From Planctomycetaceae bacterium UBA7805 (GTDB lineage Bacteria > Planctomycetota > Planctomycetia > Pirellulales > UBA7805), in assembly GCA_002480485.1 (NCBI GenBank), contig DLCF01000033.1, forward strand, positions 35,990 through 99,989: 64,000 bases of DNA. The letters run 5' to 3'. Each line of letters starts with the position of its first letter. Positions within the stretch are counted from its first letter, which is position 1. The position numbers and the translations under genes are program-made. Of this stretch, positions 713 through 30,954 are shown in pieces. The notes under the pieces were generated by a model, which was not told the origin of the DNA, made no database searches, and saw only the letters and a list, made by a program, of their open reading frames with translations.

Positions 713-726
713 AATTTGCATCCGCA

Positions 727-1851: not shown

Positions 1852-1893
1852 TAATTGTTGGTCGTCCACTTTAAATGCAATAGATTTTCACTG

Positions 1894-3764: not shown

Positions 3765-4022
3765 AGGCTTTTTCTACGGTTAGGCGGCCACAAAAATCTT
3801 GATCGCTGCGCTAAAAATTTGTATAGACAACCCGTTCTTTTACAAATTTTTCGACTGTGGTTTGCGAGATTCGGCTAGTCTCTTCTGGACAATACGAGCG
3901 AAAGGTAACCCAACTTCAATCGTTGAAAATTGTCGACCAAAATTCAATCTACCGATCATGCCAACCAAATTAAAAAATAGTTCCCAACTGCCTCGCCTCG
4001 GACCACGACATGATTTTCGCGA

Positions 4023-6121: not shown

Positions 6122-6299
6122 CCATATAAAAAGATCAAAACGTTGTTTTTATTTCGCCAAGGTTACTACCGATGAAAATAGCTGGCCATCAACGAGTTCG
6201 GGTAGTACCGAATCAAATCCTTGACCGTCCGCAAGATGGCAGAACGGTTCACTGAATTTTTCGAACTGGCTGCCCAAAAAGCGTAATCCTTATTGCACC

Positions 6300-7460: not shown

Positions 7461-7493
7461 AATTCATAGAATTTACCCCTGAATACTCCAGAT

Positions 7494-8957: not shown

Positions 8958-9025
8958 CATCTTCACCTTCAAGATTTCGCGAATCGATAGTTAGGCTGTA
9001 GAAGAGCTTACGACAATTACACCTT

Positions 9026-10108: not shown

Positions 10109-10212
10109 TCGCATTGATAACCTAATGTTTGAACTTGTGATAATTTTGCGACTGGCGTAATCTAACTTTTGCATCCGTTTAGGCACCTACAATCCACTCT
10201 GGTCTATCTTCT

Positions 10213-11367: not shown

Positions 11368-11373
11368 GGCCAT

Positions 11374-12705: not shown

Positions 12706-12752
12706 ATTTACACTCGCATGAATCGAATAGTTTGCTATTTGAATCTAACGCC

Positions 12753-14138: not shown

Positions 14139-15053
14139 TTAACAGGATTCGGATACCGTCTTTCCAAGAAGCATGCGGCCCTGCGCTACTTGCGTGATCG
14201 CGAGAAGGAAAGCGATAATTTCCCGAATCCCCATAAGCGGCAACAGCCAAGGGCGACGAATAGCAAACCTTCCGCAACGCGGTCGAAAGAGGCGATAGAT
14301 AAAGTTGTACAACGCTTTTCCGACACCCACATTTTTAAGTGTGAAGTAGTGCTCCCCTACAGATCCACTGCAAGACAGTGGATCAAAGGCCGCATGTCGG
14401 GAATCACATCCTCCTGACCAAGCTGCTAGGTGAACGACAGATGCCTGAGGTGTGTATTTTGCCAAACAATGGTATTTTGCGCAAAAGCGGAAAAGAAAAT
14501 CACTGTCCTCTCGATATGCGACGCGATAAAATCTTTGATCAAATCCGCCCACTTCGAGAGCTAATTCTCGCATGACACTGAAATTTCCCCCGCCCATATT
14601 CTTGATCCAGGCACTTCGATTGTGACTCAAGGGGAAACCTAACTCAAAATCATCGATTTCGCCGGAATGGATAGGACGGTCTGCTGCGATAATTTGCCCA
14701 GCAACAAGCTTTACATTTTTGTCACAATAACTCTTCTGGTGTGCAAGAATGAAATCTTCAGATAAGATCACATCGTCATCCAGAAAAACTACGACATCCG
14801 ATTTTGCCTCGAGCAACGCTCTATTTCGGGCTGCCGAAAGATTGGCAAACTCCTGCTTGATCCAACAAATAGATCCATCGGCATGCCAACTCGAGAGTTG
14901 GCGATCGACATCTGGCTCGTGCTCTGGTGTTTGATCCACCACCAGGATTTCATCCGCAGGTCGTCCTTGGGCCATGACATGCTGGATGGTGTTGATCAGA
15001 ACCTGTTCGCGGTTATAGGTCGGAATGGCAACGGTAATCGTTAAGGAGTGCAC
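14139..15053 (-). CDS. Glycosyltransferase family 2
   Basis: ITVAIPTYNREQVLINTIQHVMAQ...EILVVDQ...VVFLDDDV (GT-A, DXD motif). GTG start. It is the last gene of the minus-strand arm and converges on 12753-14090. Confidence 0.8.
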   Translation of the reverse strand: MHSLTITVAIPTYNREQVLINTIQHVMAQGRPADEILVVDQTPEHEPDVDRQLSSWHADGSICWIKQEFANLSAARNRALLEAKSDVVVFLDDDVILSEDFILAHQKSYCDKNVKLVAGQIIAADRPIHSGEIDDFELGFPLSHNRSAWIKNMGGGNFSVMRELALEVGGFDQRFYRVAYREDSDFLFRFCAKYHCLAKYTPQASVVHLAAWSGGCDSRHAAFDPLSCSGSVGEHYFTLKNVGVGKALYNFIYRLFRPRCGRFAIRRPWLLPLMGIREIIAFLLAITQVAQGRMLLGKTVSESC

Positions 15054-15296
15054 AGATTTCTTTCACAAGAGCTAGTTAAGAAAAACTATAACATGGCCTT
15101 AAAAATGGTCGGCAGCATCAATACAGAGCGATGCGGAGGCTACCGAAGAGACTTCCAACGGTCAAGGCATGGCGTTCACATCTGCCGACTATGTGTGCTA
15201 GCACTGCATTCATTAACGGTCATTCGACGATTGATACCTCGACAAAGGTCGGTACATTTTCAAGACACGCTCCACTTTAAGATAACGCGTTTTAGT

Positions 15297-16418
15297 AAAC
15301 CGATTTTGGTAATCGGCACGCGATCTAAGGCGATTAAAAAGTGTTCTGTCGTTTACGAGTGCATTGCAGCCCCCGAAATCAGCCTTATAGGCTGTCCCAC
15401 AGGGCAGCGTCGTGCACTTCTCAGCCAAGCAGCAAAGTATTTTGAAATGACTCTAGACATCAACCTTGATGCAATGCGGCAACGCCATTCGTTTGCGGAG
15501 ATCGTTTCGTGACGTTTGCGATAGTATTAATCGAGCGATCGTGAAACAGAGGTGCGATAACACATCGCATAGGCCGACACGAAGAAAACCTTGACAGCAC
15601 CGCTAGTATCCCTCTCTCGTCACGTTCGGTTGATGCATATTGAGGCGGGTCTGCGTACCGGAAATCGTCACGCACCTTGGCCCGCAGAATGCCATCGGCG
15701 TTTTATCAAGAGTGCAGCGAACCTGCACTGAGCGCCTACCTTTGACGCGACCAGAGTATTTTGCCGGAGAGAGTAAAGGTAGACCATACTCACGTCATCG
15801 GTAAAACCGTACATGATTGCACTCTCTGGAGACGAAACCGTGGAACTTTAGCGACTGCTCCGTGATAAGACCATTTCGGTGGCTTGCAAATTGAAAAATG
15901 GTCCTAATCACCACACGTCGCAAAGAATACTATTGACCGATTTTTAAACAGATTCTTGCAGCCAATTTGGTGCTCGCAAATTTTTTCCCCAAGATGCATC
16001 TCCCATATCCGCCTCATATCAATTCAATCCACACATTTACCAACCAGCCACTGATTACCTCTCTGCATTTTCGTACGCTCATGCCACTCCATCAGCAACC
16101 TAACCGGAATTTGTCAGGTTGATAGAGCGGTCAACACGAATACTGGCTGACCCAGGTGGCGTCTACCCGGAAAACACTCGTTGTCGTATTACGCGACTCA
16201 ACGGACCGACAACACGTTGACGCAAATGGGCCTGTCGCCCTCGCTGGCACTCGCAGCAAAATTATTTTGAATCCCCATCAAGACAATTGACCGGCAAAAA
16301 ATCTGACGCCGGTTGCAAAAAACCAGAGAACCCATACAGCGGCATGAGCATTTGCGAGCGAATTGTCCGTTTACTTTGTGGCAAAACGGTTGGGCAGTGC
16401 CATCTAGTCGCTGCCTGA
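15297..16418 (+). pseudogene. Decayed UDP-GlcNAc 2-epimerase (wecB) paralogue
   Basis: A hand translation in a single frame is colinear with WecB over about 374 codons. Matching blocks: KPILVIGTRSKAIK; CPTGQRRALLSQAAKYFEMTLDINLDAMRQRHSFAEI; *ADTKKTLTAP; HIEAGLRTGN..APWP; H*APT; FNPHIYQP; RILADPGGVYPEN; ENPYSGMSICERIVRLL. There are 12 internal in-frame stops (15510, 15522, 15528, 15558, 15570, 15729, 15774, 15780, 15849, 15945, 16101, 16218). Confidence 0.75.
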
Positions 16419-16517: not shown

Positions 16518-17432
16518 TCAGTAGACCCGCATTATTTTGCATGCAGCTTCCTTCATTCTGAGGGCAACAATCATGAGAGTGTCACGGAAAACGGCAATTG
16601 GTGATGTCTTGCATGCACTTACAAAATGCAGGATCCCCGACCAGGTTTCCCCCATGATGCAGGATCTACGTGACATCGCGTACTCACATCGTGCGCGTGT
16701 AGCAGGTCCTAGGTGTTGCATCGATGGAAGATTTTTCTCTAACACGTTTCGTGACGCTGCTTGAACCAAGCGCCGGTGCTTACGCGTCAGGGAACTTTGG
16801 TGATCGCGGTAGGAGTAAAGATTTTCGCGGAAATGATAAAAGCAAAATCCTGCAATGTATGCTCGAAGCCAAAAGTCCCAATCTTCGGCACAATGCAAGG
16901 ATTCTTCATAGCCAGATAACGCATCGTGCACAGCACAACGATACATAAAACAGGCGCCGATACCATTACGAACAGGTAATTCTCGCGGTGAAAGACACTG
17001 AATTGAACGTATTCGTTGGCCCGCAGCGTCGATCATTTTAAAGTCGGCATAAACAATATCAATCTCATCACGGTCATTAAGAACGCCAATTAATTTTTGG
17101 AAAGCATTTTGGTTGTAAACGTTGTCATCAGAACTCCACGTCAAATACTCGCCCCTCGACTCTGAGAACCCTGTATTCAGGGCGGTGGGAAGATTTCGAT
17201 TCTCTGCGTGCGTGACCTGTCGAATTCTCGAATCCCGGGCAACAAATTCTTGGATAATTTCCGGAGTGCTGTCGGTTGATCCGTCGTCGATGATGATAAG
17301 TTCCCAACTTGAGAATGACTGCCGAACAATACTCGTGATTGACTCCACGAGGTAGGCAGCACCATTATACGTGGGTAGGACTACAGAGATTTTTGGGCGA
17401 TCGCTCACAGTGCCTCTTCCACCATTCTGCAT
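16518..17432 (-). CDS. Glycosyltransferase family 2
   Basis: ISVVLPTYNGAAYLVESITSIVRQSFSSWELIIIDDGSTDSTPEII...WSSDDN (GT-A with DXD). Confidence 0.85.
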   Translation of the reverse strand: MQNGGRGTVSDRPKISVVLPTYNGAAYLVESITSIVRQSFSSWELIIIDDGSTDSTPEIIQEFVARDSRIRQVTHAENRNLPTALNTGFSESRGEYLTWSSDDNVYNQNAFQKLIGVLNDRDEIDIVYADFKMIDAAGQRIRSIQCLSPRELPVRNGIGACFMYRCAVHDALSGYEESLHCAEDWDFWLRAYIAGFCFYHFRENLYSYRDHQSSLTRKHRRLVQAASRNVLEKNLPSMQHLGPATRARCEYAMSRRSCIMGETWSGILHFVSACKTSPIAVFRDTLMIVALRMKEAACKIMRVY

Positions 17433-18348
17433 CGAGAAAATATTTTACGGCCCACGAAGGTTCAAAACGTGGGAAATATGCTGCACCTCGACCACTACTT
17501 CCTAAGAATCCACCAGAATAACGTTGCTGAGTTTTTAAGAAATCTAATGCCCGGTCGGCCTCTGCGTGACGGCCCACTTTATACCAACAGACTGCCAACT
17601 GAGCGATGCCAGGGTTACAGAACCAAGAGACTCCATTACGTGCAGGAATGGATCCCGTAGGTGACTGCACACCTGCAAGGTAATGTAATATTTCGTTAAC
17701 TTTTTGCGGATGGCCTAGGTCAATGAGCGCTTCGATTTCGTAGGCCAAAAAATGTGTCAAGCTCGCGGTAGAGAGAAGTTTTTCGTGCACGATATAGCTT
17801 TGGAAACATGCATCGGCAGCACATGCGTATTTTTCGCTACCTGTGCGATTCGAAAGGTCTCGGAGAGGAGGCAATACGTAGAGCTGGATGGTTTCTGAAA
17901 TCCCATGAGGCTCACATTGAATCGAAAAGCCATTCGCGTTTTGCTGCACTTGCGAGAGCAAATAATTGCCGGCCGCAATCATGTTCGGAAGCAACTGTGG
18001 GTGCTCCGGGTGAAGTGCCAGCAAACCGCGGAGTGCCTGCCCGGTATCAAAAACATGCGGAATTCCCTGATCAGGATCAGAAAAACTTCCATCCGGATTT
18101 TGAATTCGAGCGAGCCATTTGCCGCACCGATCGGCAAGTGCATCCTCGCCCCAGTCCAATAGCGTAGGGATTAAATAACCGGTGACCTCCGGGTATGCGC
18201 GGCGATGCCTGTGGTGAACGCGAATACCCCCGTCGGGGAGTTCATGGCTTTTGAGCCATGCAAGGGCTTGATCCACAGGCGAATCAACTTCTTGATCGCG
18301 AAAAAAAATCCTCTTTACGTGCTGCGGGACCCAATCCAAAAGCCTCAC
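17365..18348 (-). CDS. Prenyltransferase / squalene-cyclase-repeat (alpha/alpha toroid) protein
   Basis: Four spaced Q/x-x-x-DG-type repeats: HELPDGGIRV, IQNPDGSFSD, VQSPTGSIPA, QQRYSGGFLG. GTG start. The 3' end overlaps the downstream GT2 start by 68 nt. Confidence 0.55.
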   Translation of the reverse strand: MRLLDWVPQHVKRIFFRDQEVDSPVDQALAWLKSHELPDGGIRVHHRHRRAYPEVTGYLIPTLLDWGEDALADRCGKWLARIQNPDGSFSDPDQGIPHVFDTGQALRGLLALHPEHPQLLPNMIAAGNYLLSQVQQNANGFSIQCEPHGISETIQLYVLPPLRDLSNRTGSEKYACAADACFQSYIVHEKLLSTASLTHFLAYEIEALIDLGHPQKVNEILHYLAGVQSPTGSIPARNGVSWFCNPGIAQLAVCWYKVGRHAEADRALDFLKTQQRYSGGFLGSSGRGAAYFPRFEPSWAVKYFLDAEWWKRHCERSPKNLCSPTHV

Positions 18349-18370: not shown

Positions 18371-19546
18371 TTACGCTGCATTTTTTTGTTCTGATTTAAA
18401 AAGCCCCAATACGTGTTTTGCTCCAGATCGAATTGCATGATAGGCAAATTGCTCCGCATTCCATCGCTGCTGCATCCATGTCGACGGCGGACCTCCCAAG
18501 TGACGATGCATCACTTGCTGATAAATTTGCACCTCCATCGCATCGACTTCAGATAGCTCAAAGGGTAGCGCCGCTGCTTGAGCGCCGGTTCGAATGCGGG
18601 CAGCAAAAGCAGCGTCATCAACGGTGCGGTGGATTGACTCGGCAAGGCACCTCGGGTCTTCATATTCCTCCACCAAAAATGCGCTCTCTCCGTGCCGGAG
18701 GTATTCGGTCATCGGAGGAATTCGGGAAGTCACGATGGGTGCCCCACACGCAGCCGCTTCGATAAATACGATACCGAACCCTTCCCAACGGCTCGGCACA
18801 CAAAAGCAATCACATGCACTGTACCAGTACGGCAAATCCCTATTTTGAATATGATCCAGCCAGTAACAACGATCTGCGACTCCCTCTGATCTTGCCAATG
18901 CTTGATAAGACTGAACATCACCGTTTCCAATGAAAACACACCGATACTCTTTTGGAAGATGGCTCAGCGAGCAGATTAGGGTATCCAGATTTTTCTCTTC
19001 ATGCTTGCGACCCACATGAAGGATTAACTTTCCTGGATGTATTTTTCTAATTCTGTGACACTCCGGAGTATGTCTTAGAGGCTGAAATCGATTGAGATCA
19101 ACTCGATTTGGAAGGATCACTGCTTTCTCTGGACCAACACCCTTCAGCCTGACTGCTTGACTGACTGCTTGAGACATGCACAGCACAGCGTCCGCCAAAG
19201 TGACGGACCGATGAATACGATGTGCTAGGCGGTCGTGGACACTCACGACTACAGGTACGTTTGGTAAACGATTGCGAGCTACCAGATCCGCAGGCCAATA
19301 TCCCCCGTATGCTCGTACAACATCGGGCGCGATTTCTCGGAGGGCGGATCGAAAATATCGCTCTGAAACTCGCCGAATCGACATCCCGTGCGCTTGCCGA
19401 TTCTTTTTTTCTCGTGGACTTAGCGCAATGACCTCACCGAAATAGCCCGAAGGATTGTAATAGCGCTGCAGCCAATCGTACCCTGCCTTTTCATAGGCAG
19501 AAATTGGGTCCGATGGTACCACAACCAATCTCGGTTTTGGAGACAT
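18371..19546 (-). CDS. Glycosyltransferase family 4 (GT-B)
   Basis: CVPSRWEGFGIVFIEAAACGAPIVTSRIPPMTEYL. ATG 19546 (MSPKPRLVVVPSD...) lies 16 nt downstream of the upstream gene's stop. The track's longer ORF would overlap that gene. Confidence 0.8.
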   Translation of the reverse strand: MSPKPRLVVVPSDPISAYEKAGYDWLQRYYNPSGYFGEVIALSPREKKNRQAHGMSIRRVSERYFRSALREIAPDVVRAYGGYWPADLVARNRLPNVPVVVSVHDRLAHRIHRSVTLADAVLCMSQAVSQAVRLKGVGPEKAVILPNRVDLNRFQPLRHTPECHRIRKIHPGKLILHVGRKHEEKNLDTLICSLSHLPKEYRCVFIGNGDVQSYQALARSEGVADRCYWLDHIQNRDLPYWYSACDCFCVPSRWEGFGIVFIEAAACGAPIVTSRIPPMTEYLRHGESAFLVEEYEDPRCLAESIHRTVDDAAFAARIRTGAQAAALPFELSEVDAMEVQIYQQVMHRHLGGPPSTWMQQRWNAEQFAYHAIRSGAKHVLGLFKSEQKNAA

Positions 19547-19562
19547 AGGGCTTATCGTTCTC

Positions 19563-20390
19563 TTAACCGTTGGGCTGATTGCTTGATATGGGAGGAGGCA
19601 AGACTGCATCTATTTTTCGACAAACATTAATTCGCCGAAACGCGATAGCGTTTAGTAGCGGCGCCGAACTTATCCATTCGTCAAGCATTTTTCCACCTAA
19701 TGCAAGACTCATCAACTTTTTCCAAATTGGATGTAGTAGTGGACGCAGCCATGCTGGCTTATTTCCCCAGAGTGGCAATATCTGAAACGACCGGGACGAA
19801 AGCAATTGGAAATTAGTATGCTTCAGCATTGCTCGAATATCTTTACGCGAGCGATGGTACCCATCGGCAATTTCCTCATACGCTTTGACAACGTGTGTAT
19901 TAAGAGATGCCTGGAGACCAAAATCAAGAATCGCGATGCCACCGGGTATCAGCACCCGGCTGCACTCAGCCAAAACGTCTTCAACATGGGGAATCGCATA
20001 AAGCGACGAGTAGCAATAAGCTAAATGGACGCTGCCTGAGGGTAATGGAATATGACGGGCATTGGCTTGTACACACTGCACGCGGACCTTATTCTCCGCA
20101 TCTAGCCCCCTGTTGGCCAGTGCTAGCATCTCCCTCGAAAAGTCTACGCCGATCAATCGATCTGCAAAAATCGATGCTCGCTTAAGGAAATATCCATCCC
20201 CGCAACACAAATCGAGGATCGTCCCTCCCGTATAGTTCTCCCGCACCATACTTAATTTGATCTGACGCATTTTTGAAAAGTAGTCTTTTGACGCCTCGGG
20301 CTCAACGGGAAGACTCGGATAATAGTTGCGAAATTTTTGCAACTGCATTTGCTCTGCTTCAAAGACATGGGGGTCAGCGACTGACGGCAT
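19563..20390 (-). CDS. Class I SAM-dependent methyltransferase
   Basis: Motif I ILDLCCGDGYF, then LIGVDFS and LIPGGIAILDF. Confidence 0.75.
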   Translation of the reverse strand: MPSVADPHVFEAEQMQLQKFRNYYPSLPVEPEASKDYFSKMRQIKLSMVRENYTGGTILDLCCGDGYFLKRASIFADRLIGVDFSREMLALANRGLDAENKVRVQCVQANARHIPLPSGSVHLAYCYSSLYAIPHVEDVLAECSRVLIPGGIAILDFGLQASLNTHVVKAYEEIADGYHRSRKDIRAMLKHTNFQLLSSRSFQILPLWGNKPAWLRPLLHPIWKKLMSLALGGKMLDEWISSAPLLNAIAFRRINVCRKIDAVLPPPISSNQPNG

Positions 20391-20461: not shown

Positions 20462-21559
20462 CTAATCCATCCTGATGGTCGAACTCAAAACTCGCTTTGC
20501 TTTTCTTCCACACCGCCAACTAAAATCTAGAACTCGATATTTTGATGAGAGTGGCACTATCATTTGACCGCGATACAATCGCCTTAGTTCACCTCCAAAC
20601 TTTCGCTTGAAGATAGACAAGTTGTTCGCTTTGTTTTGATCTAACGCGAGGACAATTTCTCCCACGTCAAAACTCTGATACCCTTCTTTTTGTGCACCAA
20701 TAATGGCGTTCCACATTAAAAGGTAGTTTACGCCTGATGCAAGATGCTCGCTTCTGGAGCAACCCGTCCAATAGAGGGCTCCGGTATTTTCTCCAGCATG
20801 GTCGTCATGCGCTGTATTTAAAAACCCGACCGCACGGCCGTCTGAATCCATACAAACCCACAGACTCGCGAGTTTGTTTACTGCCATACCATCTGCAATG
20901 CCCTGAAAATAAGTCTTGGGATGTGGCCTTACCCCAGTGCGCGTATAGGTCTCTTGATGAATTTCGTAGTAGGCAGCCACCTGCTCGGGCCAACTCGTCT
21001 TTTCCACTGTATACCCATCTGACCGAGCCTTCGTAATCGCTTGTCTGGTGCTTGAGGAAAGGCCAGACCAGAGATCGTCGTATGGAAGCGTCAGGTCGAT
21101 TATCACCGAAATTGTCGATGTATCTTCCCAGCCGGATAGTTGTAAAGAGTTGACTCCCGCATCATTACATAACTGTGATTTTGCGATTGGTGGCAAACTG
21201 CACTGCACAGTAGGGATTTGATGTTCTGCTGCGAAACGTCTGACTGCCGTCGCTAGAAGATCCAGATATTGACGCCTTTTTTTTTCGGAAACATTCTCCA
21301 GGACAAATGGGCCAGAGTGCCCCATGGCTGACGCTCGGGCCACTCGTTGACTCGGGGGGGTGCCCCTAGGTATCTGCAGAGGAATGCCAGCCACGATCCG
21401 ATCTTGTTTTCTAACGACAAAAAAATGGTTTTCTAAATCCCATACCTTAGCCGTCATACTAAGCCATTCCCAACGATGAAAGATCCAGGTGTCTTCCGAA
21501 GCAAATACCGTCGCGTTCCATTCACTCGGCTCGACGGTCGCGATTCGTTCTACATCCAT
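20462..21559 (-). CDS. FemAB-family / GNAT-like (Acetyltransf_6-type) transferase
   Basis: N-terminal IFHRWEWLSMTAKVW. C-terminal GVNYLLMWNAIIGAQKEGYQSFDVGEI...LSIFKRKFGGELRRLYRG resembles the FemA/FemB/FemX-type tRNA-dependent aminoacyl-transferase core. Confidence 0.65.
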   Translation of the reverse strand: MDVERIATVEPSEWNATVFASEDTWIFHRWEWLSMTAKVWDLENHFFVVRKQDRIVAGIPLQIPRGTPPSQRVARASAMGHSGPFVLENVSEKKRRQYLDLLATAVRRFAAEHQIPTVQCSLPPIAKSQLCNDAGVNSLQLSGWEDTSTISVIIDLTLPYDDLWSGLSSSTRQAITKARSDGYTVEKTSWPEQVAAYYEIHQETYTRTGVRPHPKTYFQGIADGMAVNKLASLWVCMDSDGRAVGFLNTAHDDHAGENTGALYWTGCSRSEHLASGVNYLLMWNAIIGAQKEGYQSFDVGEIVLALDQNKANNLSIFKRKFGGELRRLYRGQMIVPLSSKYRVLDFSWRCGRKAKRVLSSTIRMD

Positions 21560-21580: not shown

Positions 21581-22429
21581 TTAAACCGCACAGCGATGAT
21601 TGAACGATGAATAAAAAGAGCGATTTCGGTCCATTACTTTAAATCTCTCAGGCAGAGCACCTAAACAGCTCTCGACGTACTGAAGCGTTGATGGTTCCAT
21701 ATACTCAGCATACTGACCGATTTGACCGCATCGCGTCTTCAGACCCTCGGTGCGCGTAACTTTCTTTTTTTTACGGAGCCAGCCTTGCTTAATCTGACAA
21801 TTAACCTCGATATTTCGCATATTGTCAAAGCGACCAAATGCAACTGCGTCTTGTAGTTGTTGCAAGCTTAATTGAGCTAGCCTTGCAAAATTCCATGTAG
21901 TGTCCATCGTGCTCAGTGGGTCTCTATGAAGATCTTCGTAGTGCACAATTATCTGGCCATCGGATTCAAACCACGCTGCGTCCCACGCACAATAAAATTT
22001 AATGAGCTTCTCCACTCCGTAGACTGGATCACGGATCATTGAGTCAAGTGTTCCGCAAAATCGCTGTGAACGAAAAGACTGATCAAAATAAAGCGATAAG
22101 AGTGTATCCCTCGGATCGCGCATTAAAAATACAAGCCTGGATTTTTTGGCTAATTTCGTTTGCACTTCTATTTGGCTTGCAGACTGCGTATTGAATTGAG
22201 GCATCGCATGAGACATCTGCACTAGAGGAACATCGTGTTGCCTCTGCACATCAGCATCAAGTGCGAAACTCCATTGTTTTTCTGGGATTCCATACGCTGC
22301 AACCAGCATCCGCCGCAACATCACACCAAACCAGGTGTTCCCGACCTTCGGATAGCCCACAACCAGAAGATGAGGGACGGATGGACTGCACCATTTTTCA
22401 CGAATTTTTTTTCGGAACAAATTAAACAT
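21581..22429 (-). CDS. Sulfotransferase-family protein
   Basis: 5'-PSB-like loop LLVVGYPKVGNTWF and 3'-PB-like FLMRDPRDTLLSLYF. Confidence 0.75.
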   Translation of the reverse strand: MFNLFRKKIREKWCSPSVPHLLVVGYPKVGNTWFGVMLRRMLVAAYGIPEKQWSFALDADVQRQHDVPLVQMSHAMPQFNTQSASQIEVQTKLAKKSRLVFLMRDPRDTLLSLYFDQSFRSQRFCGTLDSMIRDPVYGVEKLIKFYCAWDAAWFESDGQIIVHYEDLHRDPLSTMDTTWNFARLAQLSLQQLQDAVAFGRFDNMRNIEVNCQIKQGWLRKKKKVTRTEGLKTRCGQIGQYAEYMEPSTLQYVESCLGALPERFKVMDRNRSFYSSFNHRCAV

Positions 22430-22518
22430 ATCGAGATTTATATTCAGCAGATGAAAATGCTGTCTTTAGCGCGGCACGTAAAAACTTTCGAAGTAATATG
22501 TTTAAAATTGTGCGATTG

Positions 22519-23436
22519 TCATTGGGGGTAACCAACCGCTGCAAGGTCGCGAGCAAGCAATTCGGAAGTTCGCGCATTGCTTTCTCGGTACATTTTCTCG
22601 ACAAGGTCTCGATCCGCACGGCTTATTTGATAGCAGCTATTTCGTAATTTCAGCGGTAGCATTGCCGCAATTCGATTACGAATCGCAATTCGCTTATGTT
22701 TGTGTCGTCCCCGGTTACAGACGGCCTGAGTGGCGGTCGTTTGATTAGGATCTACGGATAGAAATTCGTTTAGATCAACAAGAGACTGGGGGCATTTCTG
22801 TAAATCTTCGAGCAAAAGAACTTGAATATTATCTTTTCCATGTGTTCGGTGCAGAGCCAGAATACATTGATCAAAAAAACCAGCCATAGACGCTGCCTGG
22901 CCCTCAGCAGTAGACAAAAAAGAATTCAGTGATCGATCTTGGTTAGAGAAGTATCCCCAATAATGATTGATCATCGACTCAAACCATGTAATTTGGTTGC
23001 GCAATACGATCAATACGCGCGCTGCAGGAAAACAGCTTTTTGTTCGACGTGCGATTTCTGCGAAATCGATACGAACAGGCCAGTGATCACTCGCAAGCTT
23101 GGGATCGAGCGCCCAATCAGCAGACCACCGTGGACCGGTTTCCTCTCGTGCGGTTGCTGAATGTGCTAAATCAAAATATTGGCCCAGCATAAGTGATTCA
23201 TACATTTCGATTAGACACCGAGTATCGGATGTCCGTCCGTCGGCTTTGCGGACTAAATGCTGGTAAATATCGGACCGTTCATGGTCGGATTGGCCTAACT
23301 GCAGACACCAGGCAAAACGCCGCCAAGCGATTTGAGGATGCTGTGTAAAATACGATCGTAGCGAGGTTGAACCCGCGCGCATTAAACCCAAATAAACAAC
23401 ATCAGGTTGATCGTCGCTTGACTTTGGACAATGCAT
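22519..23436 (-). CDS. Sulfotransferase-family protein (second, divergent)
   Basis: N-terminal VVYLGLMRAGSTSLRSYF (PAPS-loop-like) and LIVLRNQITWFESMINHY (RNP/RDP-type motif). Confidence 0.65.
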   Translation of the reverse strand: MHCPKSSDDQPDVVYLGLMRAGSTSLRSYFTQHPQIAWRRFAWCLQLGQSDHERSDIYQHLVRKADGRTSDTRCLIEMYESLMLGQYFDLAHSATAREETGPRWSADWALDPKLASDHWPVRIDFAEIARRTKSCFPAARVLIVLRNQITWFESMINHYWGYFSNQDRSLNSFLSTAEGQAASMAGFFDQCILALHRTHGKDNIQVLLLEDLQKCPQSLVDLNEFLSVDPNQTTATQAVCNRGRHKHKRIAIRNRIAAMLPLKLRNSCYQISRADRDLVEKMYRESNARTSELLARDLAAVGYPQ

Positions 23437-23565: not shown

Positions 23566-26298
23566 TCAGCGTATTTTCGTTCCGTTCGGCAGCCGCTGAC
23601 CTGCAATCCGTGCCTTCACAATCATTTTGAGTAATTTCTGAGCCTTTGAATGTTCTGGACGTCGTGCAATAAACCACCGAAGTTCCTGCTCTGCGTTTTC
23701 AAATTGCCTTAATTCGAACAGAATCGATGCCATGAGTAAACGAGAATCAAAATTACCTGCGTCGCAATGAATCGCTTGCTTAACACATCGGAGCGCATCT
23801 TCATTTTTTTCGATGTCTCGATATGCTTGCGTTAAGGTAATCCATAATCCGGTTGCCCTGCTCTCTTCAATCTTTTCTCTCCACAGCATGGACTCAAAAT
23901 GCTTATTTACGAACTCTATTTGCTGCTGATCACCGAGGATCCGGTAGGCTTGATAAAATTCCGGCAGGTCACCCGCCGAGGGCTCCAGCATCTGAATCAC
24001 AATATTGGCAGGAATTCGTTGAGAAAGAAGCCTCAGTAAATCTAATTTTCCATCAACAGAGCACTGAAAAGATTTTTTCCAATGCGCAACAGCTTCCTCT
24101 ACCTCTCCGGCCACAGCAGACTCTTTGCCCGCCATCAAAAGCACTTTTCCATCAAACGGTCGCACTCGCGTAGCCTGTTCGACGAGTGCTCGCTTTGCGG
24201 ACTCGTTCTTTCCCTCAAGAAACACAAGCTCCGCAAGGAACAGGTAAGCCTCCCCCTGTAGCGGGCATCTCATCACTGCCTCTCGCGCGTGCCAAAGAGC
24301 ACGATACAAAAGCTCCTGATGTTCGCCGATGGCTCTTCCCAACCATTCGCTTAATGCTTCTTTTGAGGGAAATTGTGACGCGATTGCGGCGTCGCGAATT
24401 TGTCCAATATCCATCGGATTGATGTTTGAGCGCTGCTGCGTCTGAAATTGCCGAAGGTAAATTGCCGCCATTCGTAAATGCGCTGTCGCATTGTTCAAGT
24501 CTTTTGAAAGATATGCCCGAATTTCTTGTTCCAGGATTGTGTCAAGTCCCTCAGCAATACGGAAAATTTCATTGTCATCTATTTCATTCGGCTTGAAACT
24601 ATTCAACTGTAAACCGACGCGATGACGCTTCCTCGCATACTTCACATAATTATCCCAGTGCCCGGATGCTTGCGCGGGACTCATCAGAAAATTAACAATC
24701 CCAATATTCAATACAACAACGATGACCGTAATTCCTATCCAGACAATCTTCGGAAGTGACACATTGCATTCTGCATCCGAAGTCCGTCGCATCTGGTAAA
24801 GTCGGCACCCGATTCCGCACAAAATCATGGTCCATGACATGCAGGCGGGAATATACCAGACGAAATCTACAATAGATTGTACAGCGCTCGCGCCGAGAGC
24901 AGCGACAACCGATGCAATACAAATTACCTGGACCTCATCGTGATTCTTTCGCACCGCCTGAACACACCAAAAACCACAGATAAGAAAAGCCAAAAACAAC
25001 AGAGCGAGACCAATAAAACCACTTTCGCTTGCGATCTGCAGGTAGCCGCTCTCTGCATGAGTGAATAAAACCGGAAAGGGGATTTCGAGATATGTTTTGT
25101 AAAAATCTTGATGTGTCCCGACACCATGGCCAAACCAAGGACGTGTTTCAATCGCCTTGATGTTGGCGCCCCAGATCGCGGTTCGCATTTGCTTGTAATC
25201 CGCTTGCTGAAAGGATAATTCCTTCACGGTGTCGATCTCTCGTACAAGATCATCGAAACCGTGGACGGCCAGCAAACATCCACCCAAGGCGATGCCCCCA
25301 AGCAAGTAGACAAGAATTTGGCGGTCCAAAACTTTCCGGCAGGCAACGGTGAAAGTAATGGTGGCTACCAGCATGGCTAACATGCCCCCTCTCGACATCG
25401 CGAATACACCGGTAAACGCGACAATCCCAACGCCAAGGCACCCAATCACGAGGGTTATAAAATTTGGATACTTACTGGTATTATTCCATCCCTCGCTGAT
25501 TTTCCCCGCGATCGGTTGTCGAATTTTTATCAGAAGCCAGCCTGCACACGATCCAAGGCCGAGGGAAAGAAGATGCGAAAAATGATTCGGATTTGTGAAA
25601 CATCCACGCAACCCATTGGCTTTTTTTATTGATGGATCCTGGACCCACCATAATATTTGGTCTTTGAAAAAAAATTGTGCCAAACCCAAAAGGGCAAGCG
25701 CAACAGACGAAAACGCAATCCACTGTAACATTTTCTGAACATCTTGAAGCGTTTCTGCCCGCTGCACGGTGACAAGGAAAGTGATGCCGTACGCAAAAAG
25801 TATGGCAAGTCCGGCTTTTGTTGACTGCGGATTCAGGGAAATATAAGGCCAATGGCCCCAATTCATTCCGCTTTCCCCGCTTTCATTCCATAACGATAGA
25901 ATATCGTTTGACGAGGGAGTTAATACGCTTATCCACTCTTGGGTAAGAGGAAATACCTGAAACAAAACCAGGAAACATGCCGCCAAGAACAACCATTGGC
26001 CGGCAGTCGATCGCCAGATCGCTCGTTTCAAAAGACATTGACGGGTCAACCAGGCTGCTGCCATGACGGATGCAATTGAAACATACACCAGTCGACCTAC
26101 CGGATGCCTTCCGCCCATAAAAAGCGGTGCAAAAATCAATATGCCGATAAAGCAAGCGTCAACAATCCACAACAACATCTGCGGGGCAAAGACATTTAAT
26201 GCGGGCAACTTTGAAGAGCGGCCCGAAAAATGATTTGATACCACCGTTTTAATTCCTAAAAGCAAAGGTCGTTGATCCGACTGAATCTTTGCGCTCAA
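23566..26298 (-). CDS. O-antigen ligase-like (Wzy_C) polytopic membrane domain fused to a C-terminal TPR domain
   Basis: About 540 aa with many TM segments and a loop block GHGVGTHQDFY...HAESGYLQIASESGFIGL typical of the O-antigen ligase/Wzy_C family. About 370 aa of TPR-like helical repeats follow. The TTG start is 4 nt after the wzc-like stop. Confidence 0.7.
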   Translation of the reverse strand: MSAKIQSDQRPLLLGIKTVVSNHFSGRSSKLPALNVFAPQMLLWIVDACFIGILIFAPLFMGGRHPVGRLVYVSIASVMAAAWLTRQCLLKRAIWRSTAGQWLFLAACFLVLFQVFPLTQEWISVLTPSSNDILSLWNESGESGMNWGHWPYISLNPQSTKAGLAILFAYGITFLVTVQRAETLQDVQKMLQWIAFSSVALALLGLAQFFFKDQILWWVQDPSIKKANGLRGCFTNPNHFSHLLSLGLGSCAGWLLIKIRQPIAGKISEGWNNTSKYPNFITLVIGCLGVGIVAFTGVFAMSRGGMLAMLVATITFTVACRKVLDRQILVYLLGGIALGGCLLAVHGFDDLVREIDTVKELSFQQADYKQMRTAIWGANIKAIETRPWFGHGVGTHQDFYKTYLEIPFPVLFTHAESGYLQIASESGFIGLALLFLAFLICGFWCVQAVRKNHDEVQVICIASVVAALGASAVQSIVDFVWYIPACMSWTMILCGIGCRLYQMRRTSDAECNVSLPKIVWIGITVIVVVLNIGIVNFLMSPAQASGHWDNYVKYARKRHRVGLQLNSFKPNEIDDNEIFRIAEGLDTILEQEIRAYLSKDLNNATAHLRMAAIYLRQFQTQQRSNINPMDIGQIRDAAIASQFPSKEALSEWLGRAIGEHQELLYRALWHAREAVMRCPLQGEAYLFLAELVFLEGKNESAKRALVEQATRVRPFDGKVLLMAGKESAVAGEVEEAVAHWKKSFQCSVDGKLDLLRLLSQRIPANIVIQMLEPSAGDLPEFYQAYRILGDQQQIEFVNKHFESMLWREKIEESRATGLWITLTQAYRDIEKNEDALRCVKQAIHCDAGNFDSRLLMASILFELRQFENAEQELRWFIARRPEHSKAQKLLKMIVKARIAGQRLPNGTKIR

Positions 26299-26302
26299 TC
26301 AG

Positions 26303-28666
26303 CTAGGCCGACTTTCGAAAATGTATCGATGCATTTTCTATCTCACTCACTTTCTGATCGAGGGGCCGCATTTGAAAGTTGATATCTGCGTAGTTATCTT
26401 CGGCATTCAATGTTGTCCCATCTGCTTCATCCAAACTGCCACTGTCATCATCACCATAGCCATAGCCATACCCATATCCCTCGCCTTCACCGAAATTATA
26501 TCCTTTGCCGTTTTCGGCTTTGATACAGTTGGCTACCAGACCATACACCGGGATTTTCATTTCAGAGAGGTTTTGTGCTGCTCGGAATACAACTTTACGC
26601 CGATTCTTTTCTGGTCGGACAACTATCACCATGCCATCCGTAATGCGGCCTACAAGAACTGCGTCACTCGCAACAAGAGTTGGGGGACAATCTACTAGAA
26701 TTTGGTCGTATTCTCCCTCCGCCCAAGCGAGTATTTGCGCAAGTCGATCGCTTGCCAGTAATTCAGACGGATTCTGTCGTCTCGGACCTGCAGGCAACAC
26801 GTCAAGATTTGCAGCTGCGGTGGGCACAACGTGACCTGGAATTATCTCTTGAATTGGGTCATCTGCAGCCAAAACATCCGACAGACCACGATGGCTTTTT
26901 AAGTCAAGTAACCGAGTCAATCCAGGCCGCCGCAGATCACCATCGATCAAAAGCGTCCTCTTTCCGGACTGGGCATAAACAACCGCCAAATTTGCGATGA
27001 CAGTGGTCTTACCGTCACCCGGCTCTGAACTAGTTAATGCAAGACGAGTTGACTCAGCTGCTGAAAGTGCCAAAGAGGTTCGCAACGTGCGAAAAGATTC
27101 CACGAAAACTGACGCGGGATCATTGTAGGCTGAAACCTTTTCAATCCCCTTACCACCAAGCTCTGGTAAAGCACGAACCAGGCTAATAATCGGATAGCCA
27201 ACGCGTTTACTCATCTCATCAGGTGTTCGAAATCGATCATCAATTGTGTCTTGAACATACACCAAGGCGAACCCGATGCCGATAGTTGCCAAAAACCAGA
27301 AAACGATCACTCTGGAAAGCCGAGGGGATACAATCTGTCCAGACGCTGCAGCTTCTTTTATGATTGTTGCGCGAATTTCACCCTCACCGTGACGCAGGTC
27401 GACGCTTGCGATTTGGTCAATGATTGCATCGTGAAGTCGACGCAAACGCATGACGTTCTGCTCAAGCATGGTGATATGCGCCGTGTCGCGCTGATGCGTG
27501 ACTGCCTTAAATCGCGCTTCCTCGAGACTTGCATGCAAAATCGATTCTTTTTGCTTAGCTTTGTTAAGACCCTGCTGTGCCATTCGTAACAGCACAGGAC
27601 CCAATTGGTTCGACTCCAAATTGTCTACCTGGGTTTTGAGTTGTGCATCGTGATATTCAATGTACTGCTTGGTCGTTTGAATTCGATTTTGTATTTCAAT
27701 AATTTTAGGATGCGACGGGCCGAAATCACTACTTAGCGATTTTAGCCGTGCGATATCTTCAATCAGGCCCTGCTCCAACTGGCTCCGCGTATGAATCGTG
27801 TCTGTGCTGAATCCGAGTCCTTTGGCCAAAAGCTCGCGTCCAAGAGTCTCTTCAATCGCCATCGCATATTGTTTTAGATCTTCTCCTCGAACGATTGCTC
27901 TCTGAATACCCTCTACCAAAGATTGTTGAACGAGCCGATCCTTCTTTGCGTCAAGAAAAGCCTCGTTGAGGGTAACCACCGTCTGAACGACGGGATGAAT
28001 AACATCTGACTCAGGATCAATACTAAAATCTCCCGCTGCAAGGCGCGCGTCAGCAAGCTTTACCTCTTCTGCCGAGAGTTGTCGTGCGAGATTATCTTTC
28101 TCACGAGTCATCACCTGAATAATTTTTGTCGCAGTGCCCTGATGGGTTTGATCGACAAATTGTAAATACGATTGAATTACGGCATTCACCATCGCAACAG
28201 CATTTTTGGGTTGAGTGGAGGTGGCACTGATATTCAAAACCGTTGTGCTTCTGACCACGTGCGTTGAGATTTTACTTGCCAATTCACGATGCCACGATTC
28301 CCGATTTCCCTTAAATTCTTGCAGGCACTCAGAGGGGATGTGTTGAATCGCGTTCTCCAACACCGGTTGGCTTACGATTAGTTGTTGATGTGTCGGCATC
28401 AGTTGTTGGTCATTTCGATTGACCCCTAATACATTGCCATGATCTGCACTGCCGTTTTGCACTATCAGAACCGACGTTGAGGACTGATAATATCGCGTTG
28501 CTGTCGCGGCATACCAAGCAGCGACAATTGCACAAACGATGCCCACCACGAGCATCGAATTTCGCCTGTACCAGACAATCTTGAGAAACTGAAAGACATC
28601 ATGGATGGCCCCAGCCGCATTCGTCAGGGGCAATTCATACGCTCCGTCGTCTGTCTCAACCGACAT
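26303..28666 (-). CDS. Polysaccharide co-polymerase / tyrosine autokinase (Wzc / GumC-EpsG type)
   Basis: N-terminal Wzz-like TM plus a long coiled periplasmic region and a second TM. Then a CpsD/BY-kinase domain (LTSSEPGDGKTTVIANLAVVYAQSGKRTLLIDGDLRRP) and a Tyr cluster GEGEGYGYGYGYGDDD. Start is ATG 28666 or GTG 28669. Confidence 0.85.
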   Translation of the reverse strand: MSVETDDGAYELPLTNAAGAIHDVFQFLKIVWYRRNSMLVVGIVCAIVAAWYAATATRYYQSSTSVLIVQNGSADHGNVLGVNRNDQQLMPTHQQLIVSQPVLENAIQHIPSECLQEFKGNRESWHRELASKISTHVVRSTTVLNISATSTQPKNAVAMVNAVIQSYLQFVDQTHQGTATKIIQVMTREKDNLARQLSAEEVKLADARLAAGDFSIDPESDVIHPVVQTVVTLNEAFLDAKKDRLVQQSLVEGIQRAIVRGEDLKQYAMAIEETLGRELLAKGLGFSTDTIHTRSQLEQGLIEDIARLKSLSSDFGPSHPKIIEIQNRIQTTKQYIEYHDAQLKTQVDNLESNQLGPVLLRMAQQGLNKAKQKESILHASLEEARFKAVTHQRDTAHITMLEQNVMRLRRLHDAIIDQIASVDLRHGEGEIRATIIKEAAASGQIVSPRLSRVIVFWFLATIGIGFALVYVQDTIDDRFRTPDEMSKRVGYPIISLVRALPELGGKGIEKVSAYNDPASVFVESFRTLRTSLALSAAESTRLALTSSEPGDGKTTVIANLAVVYAQSGKRTLLIDGDLRRPGLTRLLDLKSHRGLSDVLAADDPIQEIIPGHVVPTAAANLDVLPAGPRRQNPSELLASDRLAQILAWAEGEYDQILVDCPPTLVASDAVLVGRITDGMVIVVRPEKNRRKVVFRAAQNLSEMKIPVYGLVANCIKAENGKGYNFGEGEGYGYGYGYGDDDSGSLDEADGTTLNAEDNYADINFQMRPLDQKVSEIENASIHFRKSA

Positions 28667-28681
28667 CACTCGACCTTTCGA

Positions 28682-29743
28682 TTAAAACATCGGAACTTGA
28701 GTCGTGGCACCAACGCCAAAATTGACAAACCGGTCGAAAACATCAAATGCGACCGTGAGCGGTGTCCGCTCCACACTGACAACATCTCCTGAGGCAAGTC
28801 GAATGTTTTCGCGCCGCACTCTTTTTGCCTTGTGATAACTGACCTTAATGACCTGCGCTTCGGGTTTACCGGGAATACGGCGGATCACGTAGATTTTATC
28901 TGCCACCGGGGAGGTCAAGCCTCCCGCCATACCGATGACATCAAGCACATGAAGGTCGCGGTCAGATGGCAACTTGTAATCTGCCGGTTTTTTGACAAGC
29001 CCGAGCACGGTGACCGGATTTTGGTCCATCTCCGGAACCATCACAACATCACCGTCTTTCAAATTCACGCCCCGACCAGCGTTGCTTGCCGTCACGAGAT
29101 TAATTTTCACGCTACGGGAGACTGGTTGCACATGCTGATTCGCGTCATTGTAATTCGCTAATCTGTTCTGCCGTTGGCGATTTAAAGGGAAATGCTGTTT
29201 TGCAGGTGAGCGCACCTCAATGTTCGTGGCCGCATTGGAGGTCAAACCTCCGGCCGCAACAAATGCCGTGAGAAGGTTGGAAGAGCTACGAGGCAATTCG
29301 TAGGTTCCTGGATTCTCTACTGCACCAATCACAGTTACCTTGTTGGCATCTTTCGTTTCAAGGACGACTGTCACGTGGGGATTTACATATACACCACCGG
29401 CCATCGCCTGTTGCCGAATAATCTGCTCCGCCTGCTCGACACGCATCCCGGCAAGCGGAATTGATCCGAGCAATGGTACCAATGCGGTTCCATCCGCATT
29501 GATTCGAATTGGAATCGACAAAGGACCTTGATCACTCGCACCGGCAACAATTGTTACTTCAATGACGTCACCGATCTCGATAAAGTCTTTGGTCGATGCA
29601 AATCCGGATAGTCGAGATAGATCAATCGCCTTTGCATTTGTCACGTGGGGTGCTACCAGATCTTTCGGTAAATGCTTTGGGGTGATCACCCGACGATAGC
29701 AACCACTGCCGACGAGCAATGCAATTGCGAGAAGCCATGGCAT
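28682..29743 (-). CDS. Polysaccharide export protein (Wza-like; Poly_export + SLBB repeats), lipoprotein
   Basis: ATG 29743 gives MPWLLAIALLVGSGC (lipobox). Repeated SLBB-like blocks: VTVIGAVENPGTYELP, VTVLGLVKKPADYKLP. It ends 12 nt before the wzc-like start. Confidence 0.8.
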   Translation of the reverse strand: MPWLLAIALLVGSGCYRRVITPKHLPKDLVAPHVTNAKAIDLSRLSGFASTKDFIEIGDVIEVTIVAGASDQGPLSIPIRINADGTALVPLLGSIPLAGMRVEQAEQIIRQQAMAGGVYVNPHVTVVLETKDANKVTVIGAVENPGTYELPRSSSNLLTAFVAAGGLTSNAATNIEVRSPAKQHFPLNRQRQNRLANYNDANQHVQPVSRSVKINLVTASNAGRGVNLKDGDVVMVPEMDQNPVTVLGLVKKPADYKLPSDRDLHVLDVIGMAGGLTSPVADKIYVIRRIPGKPEAQVIKVSYHKAKRVRRENIRLASGDVVSVERTPLTVAFDVFDRFVNFGVGATTQVPMF

Positions 29744-30042
29744 TGAGCCAATGACTGATACGCCGAAGACTGCATTTTTATTTGGGTTTGCTAACACTCT
29801 ATTGCGATGTCGTCTTACGTTATCACCCGCAACGGCATACACACACTGCGTATCCCTACCGCCGAACTCAGCCCCACTCACGTGTGCCGAGGGTCTTTGC
29901 GAAAGCGGGTAACTAGCAAAAGCCTGTTGATTTGGTCAAGATCATACACGGAAGCCCTTGCAGATGGCCTCCATCCAGAGAGATTGCGACCGTGTGCTAT
30001 CGATGCGGGCAGATCTTGCAACTATAGCGGGCTTCAAAGGCG

Positions 30043-30864: not shown

Positions 30865-30954
30865 GTTATTCCCTCCAAAACCGGATACTCACGCCACCGA
30901 GAAAAATTGATGAATACTTTTTTTCAACACCGATTGATTTTTCTGATATTTTGT

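Follow-up and report, generated by a model that had tools for sequence, protein, structure and literature searches.

Two predicted sulfotransferases embedded in a Wza/Wzc-type polysaccharide locus of a marine planctomycete

Introduction

The synechan (xss) cluster on pSYSM of Synechocystis sp. PCC 6803 encodes a Wzx/Wzy-type exopolysaccharide (EPS) system with many glycosyltransferases (GTs) and the two sulfotransferases XssA and XssE, and sulfation of its product has been shown experimentally (PMC8205485). The nodP2-smb21248 cluster on pSymB of Sinorhizobium meliloti carries three sulfotransferases and was proposed in 2017 to make a sulfated surface polysaccharide; the sulfated glycans documented in rhizobia are lipopolysaccharide (LPS) and K-antigen (PMC5498481). 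Here we analyze a 64-kb stretch of DNA (the window) from the metagenome-assembled genome (MAG) of an uncultured marine planctomycete, Planctomycetaceae bacterium UBA7805 (contig DLCF01000033.1), in which two adjacent minus-strand genes, designated ST-A (21581–22429) and ST-B (22519–23436), lie within a run of polysaccharide export and polymerization genes and are predicted to encode sulfotransferases dependent on 3'-phosphoadenosine 5'-phosphosulfate (PAPS). The analysis of the host's own genes was limited to those of the window.

Marine heterotrophs provide further precedents. Vibrio sp. KMM 8419 makes a capsular polysaccharide (CPS) whose sulfation has been chemically proven; sulfotransferase genes lie in its CPS cluster beside copies of cysNDC, and export proceeds through an ABC transporter (Kps) (PMC11641403). 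The same study names as a hallmark the presence of PAPS-synthesis genes and sulfotransferases together in one cluster (PMC11641403). A similar report describes Cobetia marina KMM 1449 as another marine heterotroph with a sulfated CPS (PMC11766843). In Pontiella sulfatireligans F21, a member of the Kiritimatiellae within the Planctomycetes–Verrucomicrobia–Chlamydiae (PVC) group, dye-binding assays detected sulfated exopolymers, mostly an N-sulfated polymer, and a PF13469 sulfotransferase gene was found within a cluster of GT2, GT4 and methyltransferase genes interpreted as a putative sulfated glycosaminoglycan cluster (PMC7356697). PF13469 genes have also been noted in some Planctomycetes in a survey of mat MAGs (PMC9723792). 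Our literature search found no description of a sulfotransferase-bearing polysaccharide locus in Planctomycetota.

Results

Family assignment of ST-A and ST-B

The first-pass annotation of the window had called two sulfotransferase genes, and both are borne out as intact open reading frames (ORFs) with exactly the boundaries it gave, encoding 282 residues (ST-A) and 305 residues (ST-B). The motifs that it read as cofactor-binding are all present: VVGYPKVGNTWF at residues 23–34 and FLMRDPRDTLLSLY at residues 101–114 of ST-A, and YLGLMRAGSTSL at residues 15–26 and IVLRNQITWFESMINHY at residues 143–159 of ST-B. ST-A matches Pfam PF00685 (Sulfotransfer_1) over its full length (residues 19–254; E = 8.9e-12, 45.4 bits against a cut-off of 22), and ST-B matches PF13469 (Sulfotransfer_3; E = 1.4e-7, 32.4 bits against a cut-off of 27) and also exceeds the cut-off for PF17784 (Sulfotransfer_4; 25.1 bits against 22.8); no NCBIfam model matches either protein. 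Neither protein contains a hydrophobic or transmembrane segment or a signal peptide, and both are therefore predicted to be cytoplasmic. The residues expected to bind the 5'-phosphosulfate and the 3'-phosphate of PAPS are kept in both proteins and across 77 family members of ST-A from named genomes and 66 relatives of ST-B, the sets on which the residue counts below are based. Membership of the two proteins in the PAPS-dependent sulfotransferase class is a prediction that we hold with high confidence.

Motifs and predicted fold of ST-A

ST-A resembles the cytosolic sulfotransferases (SULTs). A single-sequence search of Protein Data Bank (PDB) sequences returned cytosolic SULT2B1b, plant SOT16/18 and the glycopeptide sulfotransferases Teg12/14, and a family profile built from 11 members matched plant SOT16 at E = 2.5e-20, pairing three motifs of the family with those of the plant enzyme (YPKvGrTW with YPKTGTTW, RDPRDtLvS with RDPKDTFIS, and RkGkvGgY with RKGKVGDW). 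The putative 5'-phosphosulfate-binding (PSB) loop of ST-A, YPKVGNTW (residues 26–33), pairs with the YPKSGTTW and YPKTGTTW loops of SULT2B1b and SOT16, and ST-A has every residue of the PKxGxTW signature, which is well kept in the family (K28 in 69 of 77 members, G30 in 77, T32 in 76 and W33 in 77). Its 3'-phosphate motif RDPRDTLLS, running from R104 to S112, pairs with RNPRDVVVS and RDPKDTFIS of the solved enzymes, and R104, D108 and S112 are each present in 77/77 members. Toward the C-terminus, R233-C-G235-QIGQY corresponds to RKGKVGDW of SOT16 in the RxGxxGxW/Y motif (R233, 77/77; G235, 75/77). H74 lies at the end of a model strand formed by residues 70–74, is invariant in the alignment designated A1 and occurs in 68 of the 77 relatives; HMMER gave no pairing of this residue with the histidine of SULT2B1b or SOT16.

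The AlphaFold model of ST-A has a predicted local distance difference test score (pLDDT) of 72 and a predicted template modeling score (pTM) of 0.72. When it was searched with Foldseek against the PDB, the top 50 matches were all of the sulfotransferase fold, with a probability of 1.0 and TM-scores of about 0.5–0.58; nearly all are sulfotransferases bound to PAPS or its desulfated form, together with retinol dehydratase. The ST-A family is large and widespread, with 425 confirmed loci in a scan of named genomes and hosts that include Casimicrobiaceae, Kofleriaceae, Paracoccus, Mesorhizobium, cyanobacteria, Verrucomicrobiota, Fuerstiella and Phycisphaerales. Two relatives of ST-A (P0008 and P0010) carry an N-terminal tetratricopeptide-repeat (TPR) extension of about 90–100 residues.

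Motifs and predicted fold of ST-B

ST-B is of the Sulfotransfer_3 type and resembles heparan sulfate (HS) sulfotransferases. As a single sequence it matched nothing significant among PDB sequences; its family profile matched the Alicyclobacillus sulfotransferase 3rnl (E = 3.7e-19), 3-OST-1 (8.8e-6) and the N-sulfotransferase (NST) domain (1.1e-5). The AlphaFold model (pLDDT 78, pTM 0.79) agrees with this assignment, its closest Foldseek matches being 3rnl, the NDST1 sulfotransferase domain and 3-OST-1/3/5, followed by tyrosylprotein sulfotransferase (TPST) and the CurM sulfotransferase domain, at a probability of 1.0. The loop GLMRAGST pairs with GVRKGGT of 3-OST-1, GPQKTGT of NST and GVPRSGTT of TPST, so that R20, within MRAGST, occupies the position of the catalytic lysine of 3-OST-1 and NST. 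At this position the 66 relatives have lysine in 43 cases, arginine in 22 and histidine in one; G22 is kept in 59 of them and serine or threonine at position 23 in all 66. The 3'-phosphate motif LRNQITWFES, in which R146 and S154 are the key residues, pairs with LRNPVDRAFS of 3rnl and LRDPSERVLS of 3-OST-1 (R146, 66/66; serine or threonine at 154, 63/66). E80 follows model strand 74–79, the sole strand between those that carry the PSB loop and the 3'-phosphate-binding (3'PB) motif, and is kept in 64/66 relatives; from model topology and conservation, we infer that E80 is the probable catalytic base.

The ST-B family is small. Among 1.84 billion representative proteins, 272 were found at E ≤ 1e-3, 81 at E ≤ 1e-10 and 5 at E ≤ 1e-30, and a metagenome collection yielded 8 loci only. 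Most relatives are found on short contigs (under 6 kb), and the gene context of one that is 43% identical to ST-B (P0017, in locus L006) was uninformative.

Relation between the two proteins and selective constraint

The first-pass annotation had described the two genes as tandem sulfotransferases. Their adjacency stands; kinship does not extend beyond the superfamily level, with a best BLASTP E-value of 6 between the two proteins and an hhalign probability of 94%. Recent tandem duplication is ruled out by the same comparison, in which the only link is between profiles. The two proteins would also differ in active-site type (Lys28/His74 in ST-A, Arg20/Glu80 in ST-B), and it is plausible from these residues that they act on two positions or two sugar residues, at hydroxyl or amino groups.

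Both genes appear to be under purifying constraint. Relative to orthologs in a syntenic contig (L001), the ratio of nonsynonymous to synonymous substitution rates (dN/dS) is 0.20 for ST-A and 0.16 for ST-B, and neighboring genes range from 0.12 to 0.19. The locus contains an internal contrast to these intact genes in the form of a decayed wecB-type UDP-GlcNAc 2-epimerase (15288–16415, plus strand) with about 14 in-frame stops, which fills the 1.46-kb gap between two GT2 genes; compared by tblastn with the intact epimerase of L001, it retains 40% identity over 393 residues through the stop codons, and the gene is intact in both L001 and L007. Genes of this locus that lose their function thus do decay, and ST-A and ST-B have not.

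These observations bear on whether one or both proteins might be catalytically inactive relics, or structural or regulatory subunits. The decayed epimerase indicates that the locus is not wholly intact, and ST-B has arginine where HS sulfotransferases have lysine. Arginine at position 20 is, however, shared with 22/66 relatives and with the solved TPST loop, and TPSTs are catalytically active with a loop arginine. Together with the intact frames, the dN/dS values of 0.16–0.20 and the retention of all cofactor residues, this makes inactivity highly improbable. ST-A and ST-B are intact, constrained proteins of the PAPS-sulfotransferase fold, with complete cofactor motifs and a predicted cytoplasmic location.

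Position of the pair in a conserved export and polymerization run

The co-directional placement of the sulfotransferase genes with export and polymerization genes, also part of the first-pass annotation, was confirmed. On the minus strand the genes follow in the order RNase Y, YmdB, Wza, Wzc, Wzy_C-TPR, ST-B, ST-A, FemAB-like, methyltransferase, GT4, toroid, GT2, the 1.46-kb gap and a further GT2, and from Wza onward the successive spacings are 12, 4, 129, 89, 21, 71, −47, 22 and −68 nt. No terminator-like hairpin was found in the gaps between the Wzy, ST-B, ST-A and FemAB-like genes, in a promoter and terminator consensus scan that performed at or below chance level and gives nothing firm on operon structure.

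The Wza-like gene (28682–29881) encodes an outer-membrane polysaccharide export (OPX) protein with Poly_export and SLBB domains above Pfam cut-offs and an EpsE/EpsY-like NCBIfam match below cut-off. The Wzc-like gene (26303–28669) encodes a co-polymerase and BY-type tyrosine autokinase of 788 residues, with Pfam Wzz and AAA_31 domains, a TIGR01007 match of 147.8 bits against a cut-off of 108 and a C-terminal GYGYGYGYG tyrosine cluster. The locus therefore holds a pair of an OPX protein (Wza) and a tyrosine autokinase of the polysaccharide co-polymerase class PCP-2a (Wzc). Between Wzc and ST-B lies the gene for a polytopic membrane protein of 910 residues (23566–26298) in the Wzy_C (O-antigen ligase/polymerase) family (E = 1.2e-19, 71 bits against a cut-off of 31.7), with about 12 hydrophobic segments and a C-terminal TPR region whose TPR-family matches are weak and all below gathering cut-offs. 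From its family, the protein could act as either a polymerase or a ligase.

That family also includes O-antigen ligases, Wza/Wzc systems export capsules as well as EPS, and the rhizobial precedents are a sulfated LPS and K-antigen (PMC5498481), all of which would fit a glycan that stays attached to the cell (for example, an LPS chain of the O-antigen type, a capsule, or a holdfast or stalk glycan) in place of a released exopolysaccharide. Sequence does not separate a released from an attached polymer; a cell-bound product would change the name of the product and leave the sulfation mechanism the same, and is thus compatible with sulfation of an exported polymer. We regard it as possible, though somewhat unlikely.

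The order from RNase Y to the last GT2 is kept in four contigs (L001, L007, L086 and L087), all from related marine Planctomycetaceae lineages and one of them (L007) from Planctomycetaceae bacterium TMED10, at protein identities of 57–85%. The placement of ST-B and ST-A inside the export and polymerization run is thus real and recurs at the same spot in four related lineages. Within the conserved run, Wzy_C-TPR has diverged furthest, with 57–64% identity against 70–85% for its neighbors, a divergence that would be expected if the structure or linkage of the repeat unit differed among the lineages.

Relatives of the sulfotransferases in other genomes

More distant relatives of ST-A also occur near polysaccharide and sulfation genes. 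In L004, a relative with 31% identity has as its flanking genes a flippase of the Wzx type, another Sulfotransfer_3 protein and adenosine 5'-phosphosulfate (APS) kinase, and the surroundings include Polysacc_synt_2, Acyl_transf_3-SGNH, GT4 and sugar-nucleotide genes and a pectate-lyase-like beta-helix protein. The string of ST-A homolog, flippase, Sulfotransfer_3 protein and APS kinase in L004 spans 10001–13888 and forms a compact module for sulfation that includes a PAPS step of its own. An APS kinase gene lies within 10 kb of the ST-A homolog in L026, L038 and L039, and a Wzx gene lies about 1.6 kb or less downstream of it in four Kofleriaceae/deltaproteobacterial loci (L013, L014, L016 and L024), adjoining it in three. 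These matches come from a tblastn panel of single Wza, Wzc, Wzy, GT, APS kinase and Wzx sequences run against 79 loci with ST-A relatives, which is too insensitive for divergent families and of which only the APS kinase and Wzx matches are usable.

On pSymB of S. meliloti (L094; CP073680.1, 774794–799501), an ST-A homolog with 25% identity over 84% coverage (E = 2e-15) is accompanied by a second sulfotransferase, a Wza-like exporter, a Wzy_C (O-antigen-ligase-family) protein, a chain-length determinant/tyrosine kinase, a GT4, a PIG-L deacetylase and a polysaccharide lyase. Across 36 loci, the commonest nearest neighbor of an ST-A homolog was another sulfotransferase (14/126 ORFs), followed by methyltransferases, asparagine synthase, GT4s and sugar epimerases/dehydratases, and PVC loci were alike; these batch Pfam scans used crude ORF calls, many of them probably spurious in GC-rich loci, and had no background control.

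Other genes of the locus and the window

The RNase Y–YmdB gene pair (30043–32520, minus strand) immediately precedes Wza in the same orientation, an adjacency that is kept in L001, L007, L086 and L087. The rny-ymdB pair of Bacillus subtilis is tied to biofilm gene expression, and by analogy a regulatory tie of the pair to the polysaccharide locus is conceivable here.

Downstream of ST-A by 21 nt, the minus strand encodes a syntenic FemAB/GNAT-like protein (20462–21559; Acetyltransf_6, E = 8.7e-10; FemAB, E = 9e-9) with a weak pepcterm_femAB match, and these hints make it a candidate for aminoacyl or acyl decoration of the glycan. Membership in a PEP-CTERM/exosortase system was considered and rejected, the pepcterm_femAB, PEP_O_lig_1 and PrsT matches being far below cut-off and the window containing no exosortase. 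The run continues on the same strand with an S-adenosylmethionine (SAM)-dependent methyltransferase (19563–20390; Pfam Methyltransf_11/25), a GT4 (18371–19609; Glycos_transf_1, E = 8.2e-34), an alpha/alpha-toroid protein of 327 residues (17365–18348) and a GT2 (16518–17432; Glycos_transf_2, E = 1.5e-32). The toroid protein, which lies between the GT4 and GT2 genes, has squalene-cyclase/prenyltransferase-like matches below cut-offs and is 77–85% identical in the syntenic loci. Beyond the epimerase pseudogene, the last gene of the run is a second GT2 (14139–15053; Glycos_transf_2, E = 2.5e-19).

A divergent half of the locus occupies the plus strand (44–14090) and encodes, in order, a partial GT4, a UDP-GlcNAc 2-epimerase, a SAM-dependent methyltransferase, a GT2, an FkbM methyltransferase, two GT4s, a membrane protein of 487 residues, three GT4s and an Acyl_transf_3 protein (12732–14090). 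This half thus contains six GT4s (one cut by the window edge), one GT2 and two methyltransferases, bringing the locus to about ten glycosyltransferases. Its intact epimerase (727–1851) is a paralog of the decayed one. The protein of 487 residues (7494–8957), which is encoded among the GT4 genes, is polytopic, with roughly 8–10 hydrophobic segments, and has no Pfam or NCBIfam match; it is a candidate for a flippase or second polymerase from an undescribed family. No deacetylase was found in the window, and the sulfation could be of either the O- or the N-type.

Farther along the window, a protein of 678 residues (44016–46052, minus strand) joins a PTS EIIA-2 domain at its N-terminus to a bicarbonate-transporter membrane domain of the SLC4/Band-3 type (HCO3_cotransp, E = 8e-169), a family typical of eukaryotes that occurs here in a planctomycete.

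Discussion

We consider it probable, from sequence and gene context, that the two sulfotransferases encoded inside this Wza/Wzc/Wzy/GT locus use PAPS to sulfate two sites on a lipid-linked repeat unit prior to its export. The interpretation of the region as a sulfated-polysaccharide locus, first made in the first-pass annotation, is supported by the family matches, the fold matches to enzymes in complex with PAPS or its desulfated form, the conserved cofactor residues and the conserved placement; the product is still a prediction. PAPS is a cytoplasmic nucleotide, and under the accepted Wzx/Wzy pathway sulfation would therefore take place at the inner face of the membrane, on the undecaprenyl-diphosphate-linked oligosaccharide repeat unit. 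In this mechanism ST-A and ST-B would sulfate the repeat unit before it is flipped, polymerized by Wzy and exported by Wza/Wzc, and the methyltransferase, FemAB-like and acyltransferase enzymes would decorate it at the same stage. ST-A would use Lys28 of its PSB loop and His74, as cytosolic SULTs do, and ST-B would use Arg20 (lysine in most relatives) together with Glu80, the latter serving as base in the manner of HS and tyrosylprotein sulfotransferases. PAPS would be supplied from genes elsewhere in the genome, and the locus would yield an exopolysaccharide or capsule that is sulfated and probably carries methyl and acyl groups as well.

Several observations weigh against this reading. The host is an uncultured MAG, and the proposal is built on sequence and gene context. 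Co-transcription of the sulfotransferase run is inferred, with gene spacing as its sole basis. The window contains no PAPS-supply gene, as the first-pass annotation had noted: a scan of all window ORFs of at least 120 residues found no domain for PAPS supply (APS kinase, ATP sulfurylase or any other) within the 64 kb. The same set of ORFs gave no Polysacc_synt, Bac_transf or Glycos_transf_4 match that would mark a Wzx flippase or an initiating phosphoglycosyl transferase; these genes may lie outside the window. Neither HMMER nor hhalign pairs E80 of ST-B with the catalytic glutamate of 3-OST-1 or NST, or with the GESS segment in XssA, owing to an insertion of about 40 residues that follows E80 (residues 81–124), and a sub-profile of the N-terminal region of the protein (alignment A4) aligned to PDB sequences by the PSB loop alone, with E80 unplaced. 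Among solved structures, the enzymes closest to ST-A have small-molecule acceptors (glucosinolates, steroids and glycopeptides), not polysaccharides, and around distant relatives of ST-A the enrichment of polysaccharide genes is moderate only, the commonest neighbor being a sulfotransferase.

The last two of these points would also be expected if the proteins were genuine PAPS sulfotransferases with an acceptor other than the exported polymer (a small metabolite, a lipid or glycolipid, or a protein tyrosine), their genes merely riding in the locus. The neighborhoods of distant homologs are indeed heterogeneous, and the fold matches of ST-B include tyrosylprotein sulfotransferases and polyketide sulfotransferase domains. 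The best fold and sequence matches of ST-B are, however, carbohydrate sulfotransferases and XssA; ST-A and ST-B lie, with short gaps, between the polymerase-family gene and decoration and GT genes, a placement kept in four lineages; and relatives adjoin Wzx, APS kinase and Wza/Wzc-type genes. We therefore judge a non-polymer acceptor unlikely and favor sulfation of the exported polymer.

Sulfated polysaccharides are abundant in the sea and slow to degrade. Algae and cyanobacteria make up most of the producers known so far, and Planctomycetes figure in the discussion almost solely as sulfatase-rich consumers. We tentatively suggest that a clade of marine Planctomycetaceae (free-living, TMED10-like MAGs) makes a doubly sulfated, methylated and acyl- or aminoacyl-decorated exopolysaccharide and that ST-B represents a rare bacterial subfamily of carbohydrate sulfotransferases. 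If this is true, Planctomycetes, known as sulfatase-rich degraders, also produce sulfated glycans in the ocean, and the conserved, selectively maintained two-sulfotransferase locus suggests that some pelagic members add to the pool of sulfated polysaccharide. Such a polymer would matter for the stickiness of particles, the binding of metals and the export of carbon. ST-A and ST-B could likewise serve as soluble bacterial tools for glycan sulfation; soluble cytoplasmic carbohydrate sulfotransferases of bacterial origin are wanted for the microbial production of sulfated glycans, where expression of the animal Golgi enzymes is poor. The underlying concept has been described before, and the sulfated product is what we predict.

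Among individual enzymes, ST-A is most like the cytosolic SULT, plant SOT and glycopeptide sulfotransferases (SOT16/18, SULT2B1b, Teg12/14 and StaL), its nearest solved relatives, with which it shares the YPKxGxTW loop, RDPxDxxxS and RKGxxGxW/Y and, putatively, the catalytic-histidine strand. Those enzymes act on small molecules or glycopeptide aglycones, whereas the gene context of ST-A points to a glycan acceptor. ST-B is most like the HS sulfotransferases (the NDST1 domain and 3-OST-1/3/5) and bacterial 3rnl, which are its nearest solved folds and profile matches and share its PSB loop, the arginine and serine of its 3'PB motif and probably its glutamate base. It differs from them in sequence (12–17% identity), in the insertion of about 40 residues and in having arginine in place of lysine in the loop, and its setting would be the bacterial cytoplasm, in contrast to the Golgi lumen in which the animal HS enzymes work.

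At the level of the locus, the synechan xss cluster is alike in being of the Wzx/Wzy type, in its many GTs and in having a pair of sulfotransferases that are not paralogs. Comparison by hhalign makes the ST-B family a distant relative of XssA (probability 98.9%, E = 2.9e-17, near full length at about 14% identity) and of XssE (96.7%). ST-A, of the Sulfotransfer_1 type, has no xss counterpart, with hhalign probabilities of 34% and 16% against the two Xss enzymes indicating kinship at the superfamily level only, and tblastn gave no match for either planctomycete sulfotransferase on pSYSM at E ≤ 1e-3. The xss regulators XssQRS have no equivalent in the window locus, where no STAND or response-regulator genes were seen. 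Wza and Wzc adjoin the sulfotransferases in the window, whereas the synechan OPX gene lies elsewhere on the chromosome, and the two systems belong to different phyla.

The S. meliloti pSymB cluster resembles the window in combining two sulfotransferases with an exporter of the Wza type, a Wzy_C protein, a chain-length determinant and a GT4. It also encodes PAPS synthesis (nodP2Q2) and a PIG-L deacetylase, neither of which occurs in the window, and its product, too, is a prediction. Measured against the hallmark proposed for sulfated capsules (PMC11641403), the window has sulfotransferases inside the cluster but no cysD, cysN or cysC in its 64 kb. The likeness of the Vibrio and Cobetia capsule loci to this locus is one of description. 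Pontiella belongs to another phylum and has one sulfotransferase in its cluster, for which a Wza/Wzc context is unreported.

With comparable loci in Synechocystis, on S. meliloti pSymB and in Vibrio sp. KMM 8419, Cobetia marina and Pontiella, the novelty that the first-pass annotation ascribed to this arrangement was too generous. Polysaccharide machinery with embedded sulfotransferases is an architecture already known; the new elements are modest, namely its occurrence in a planctomycete and the sparsely populated subfamily to which ST-B belongs.

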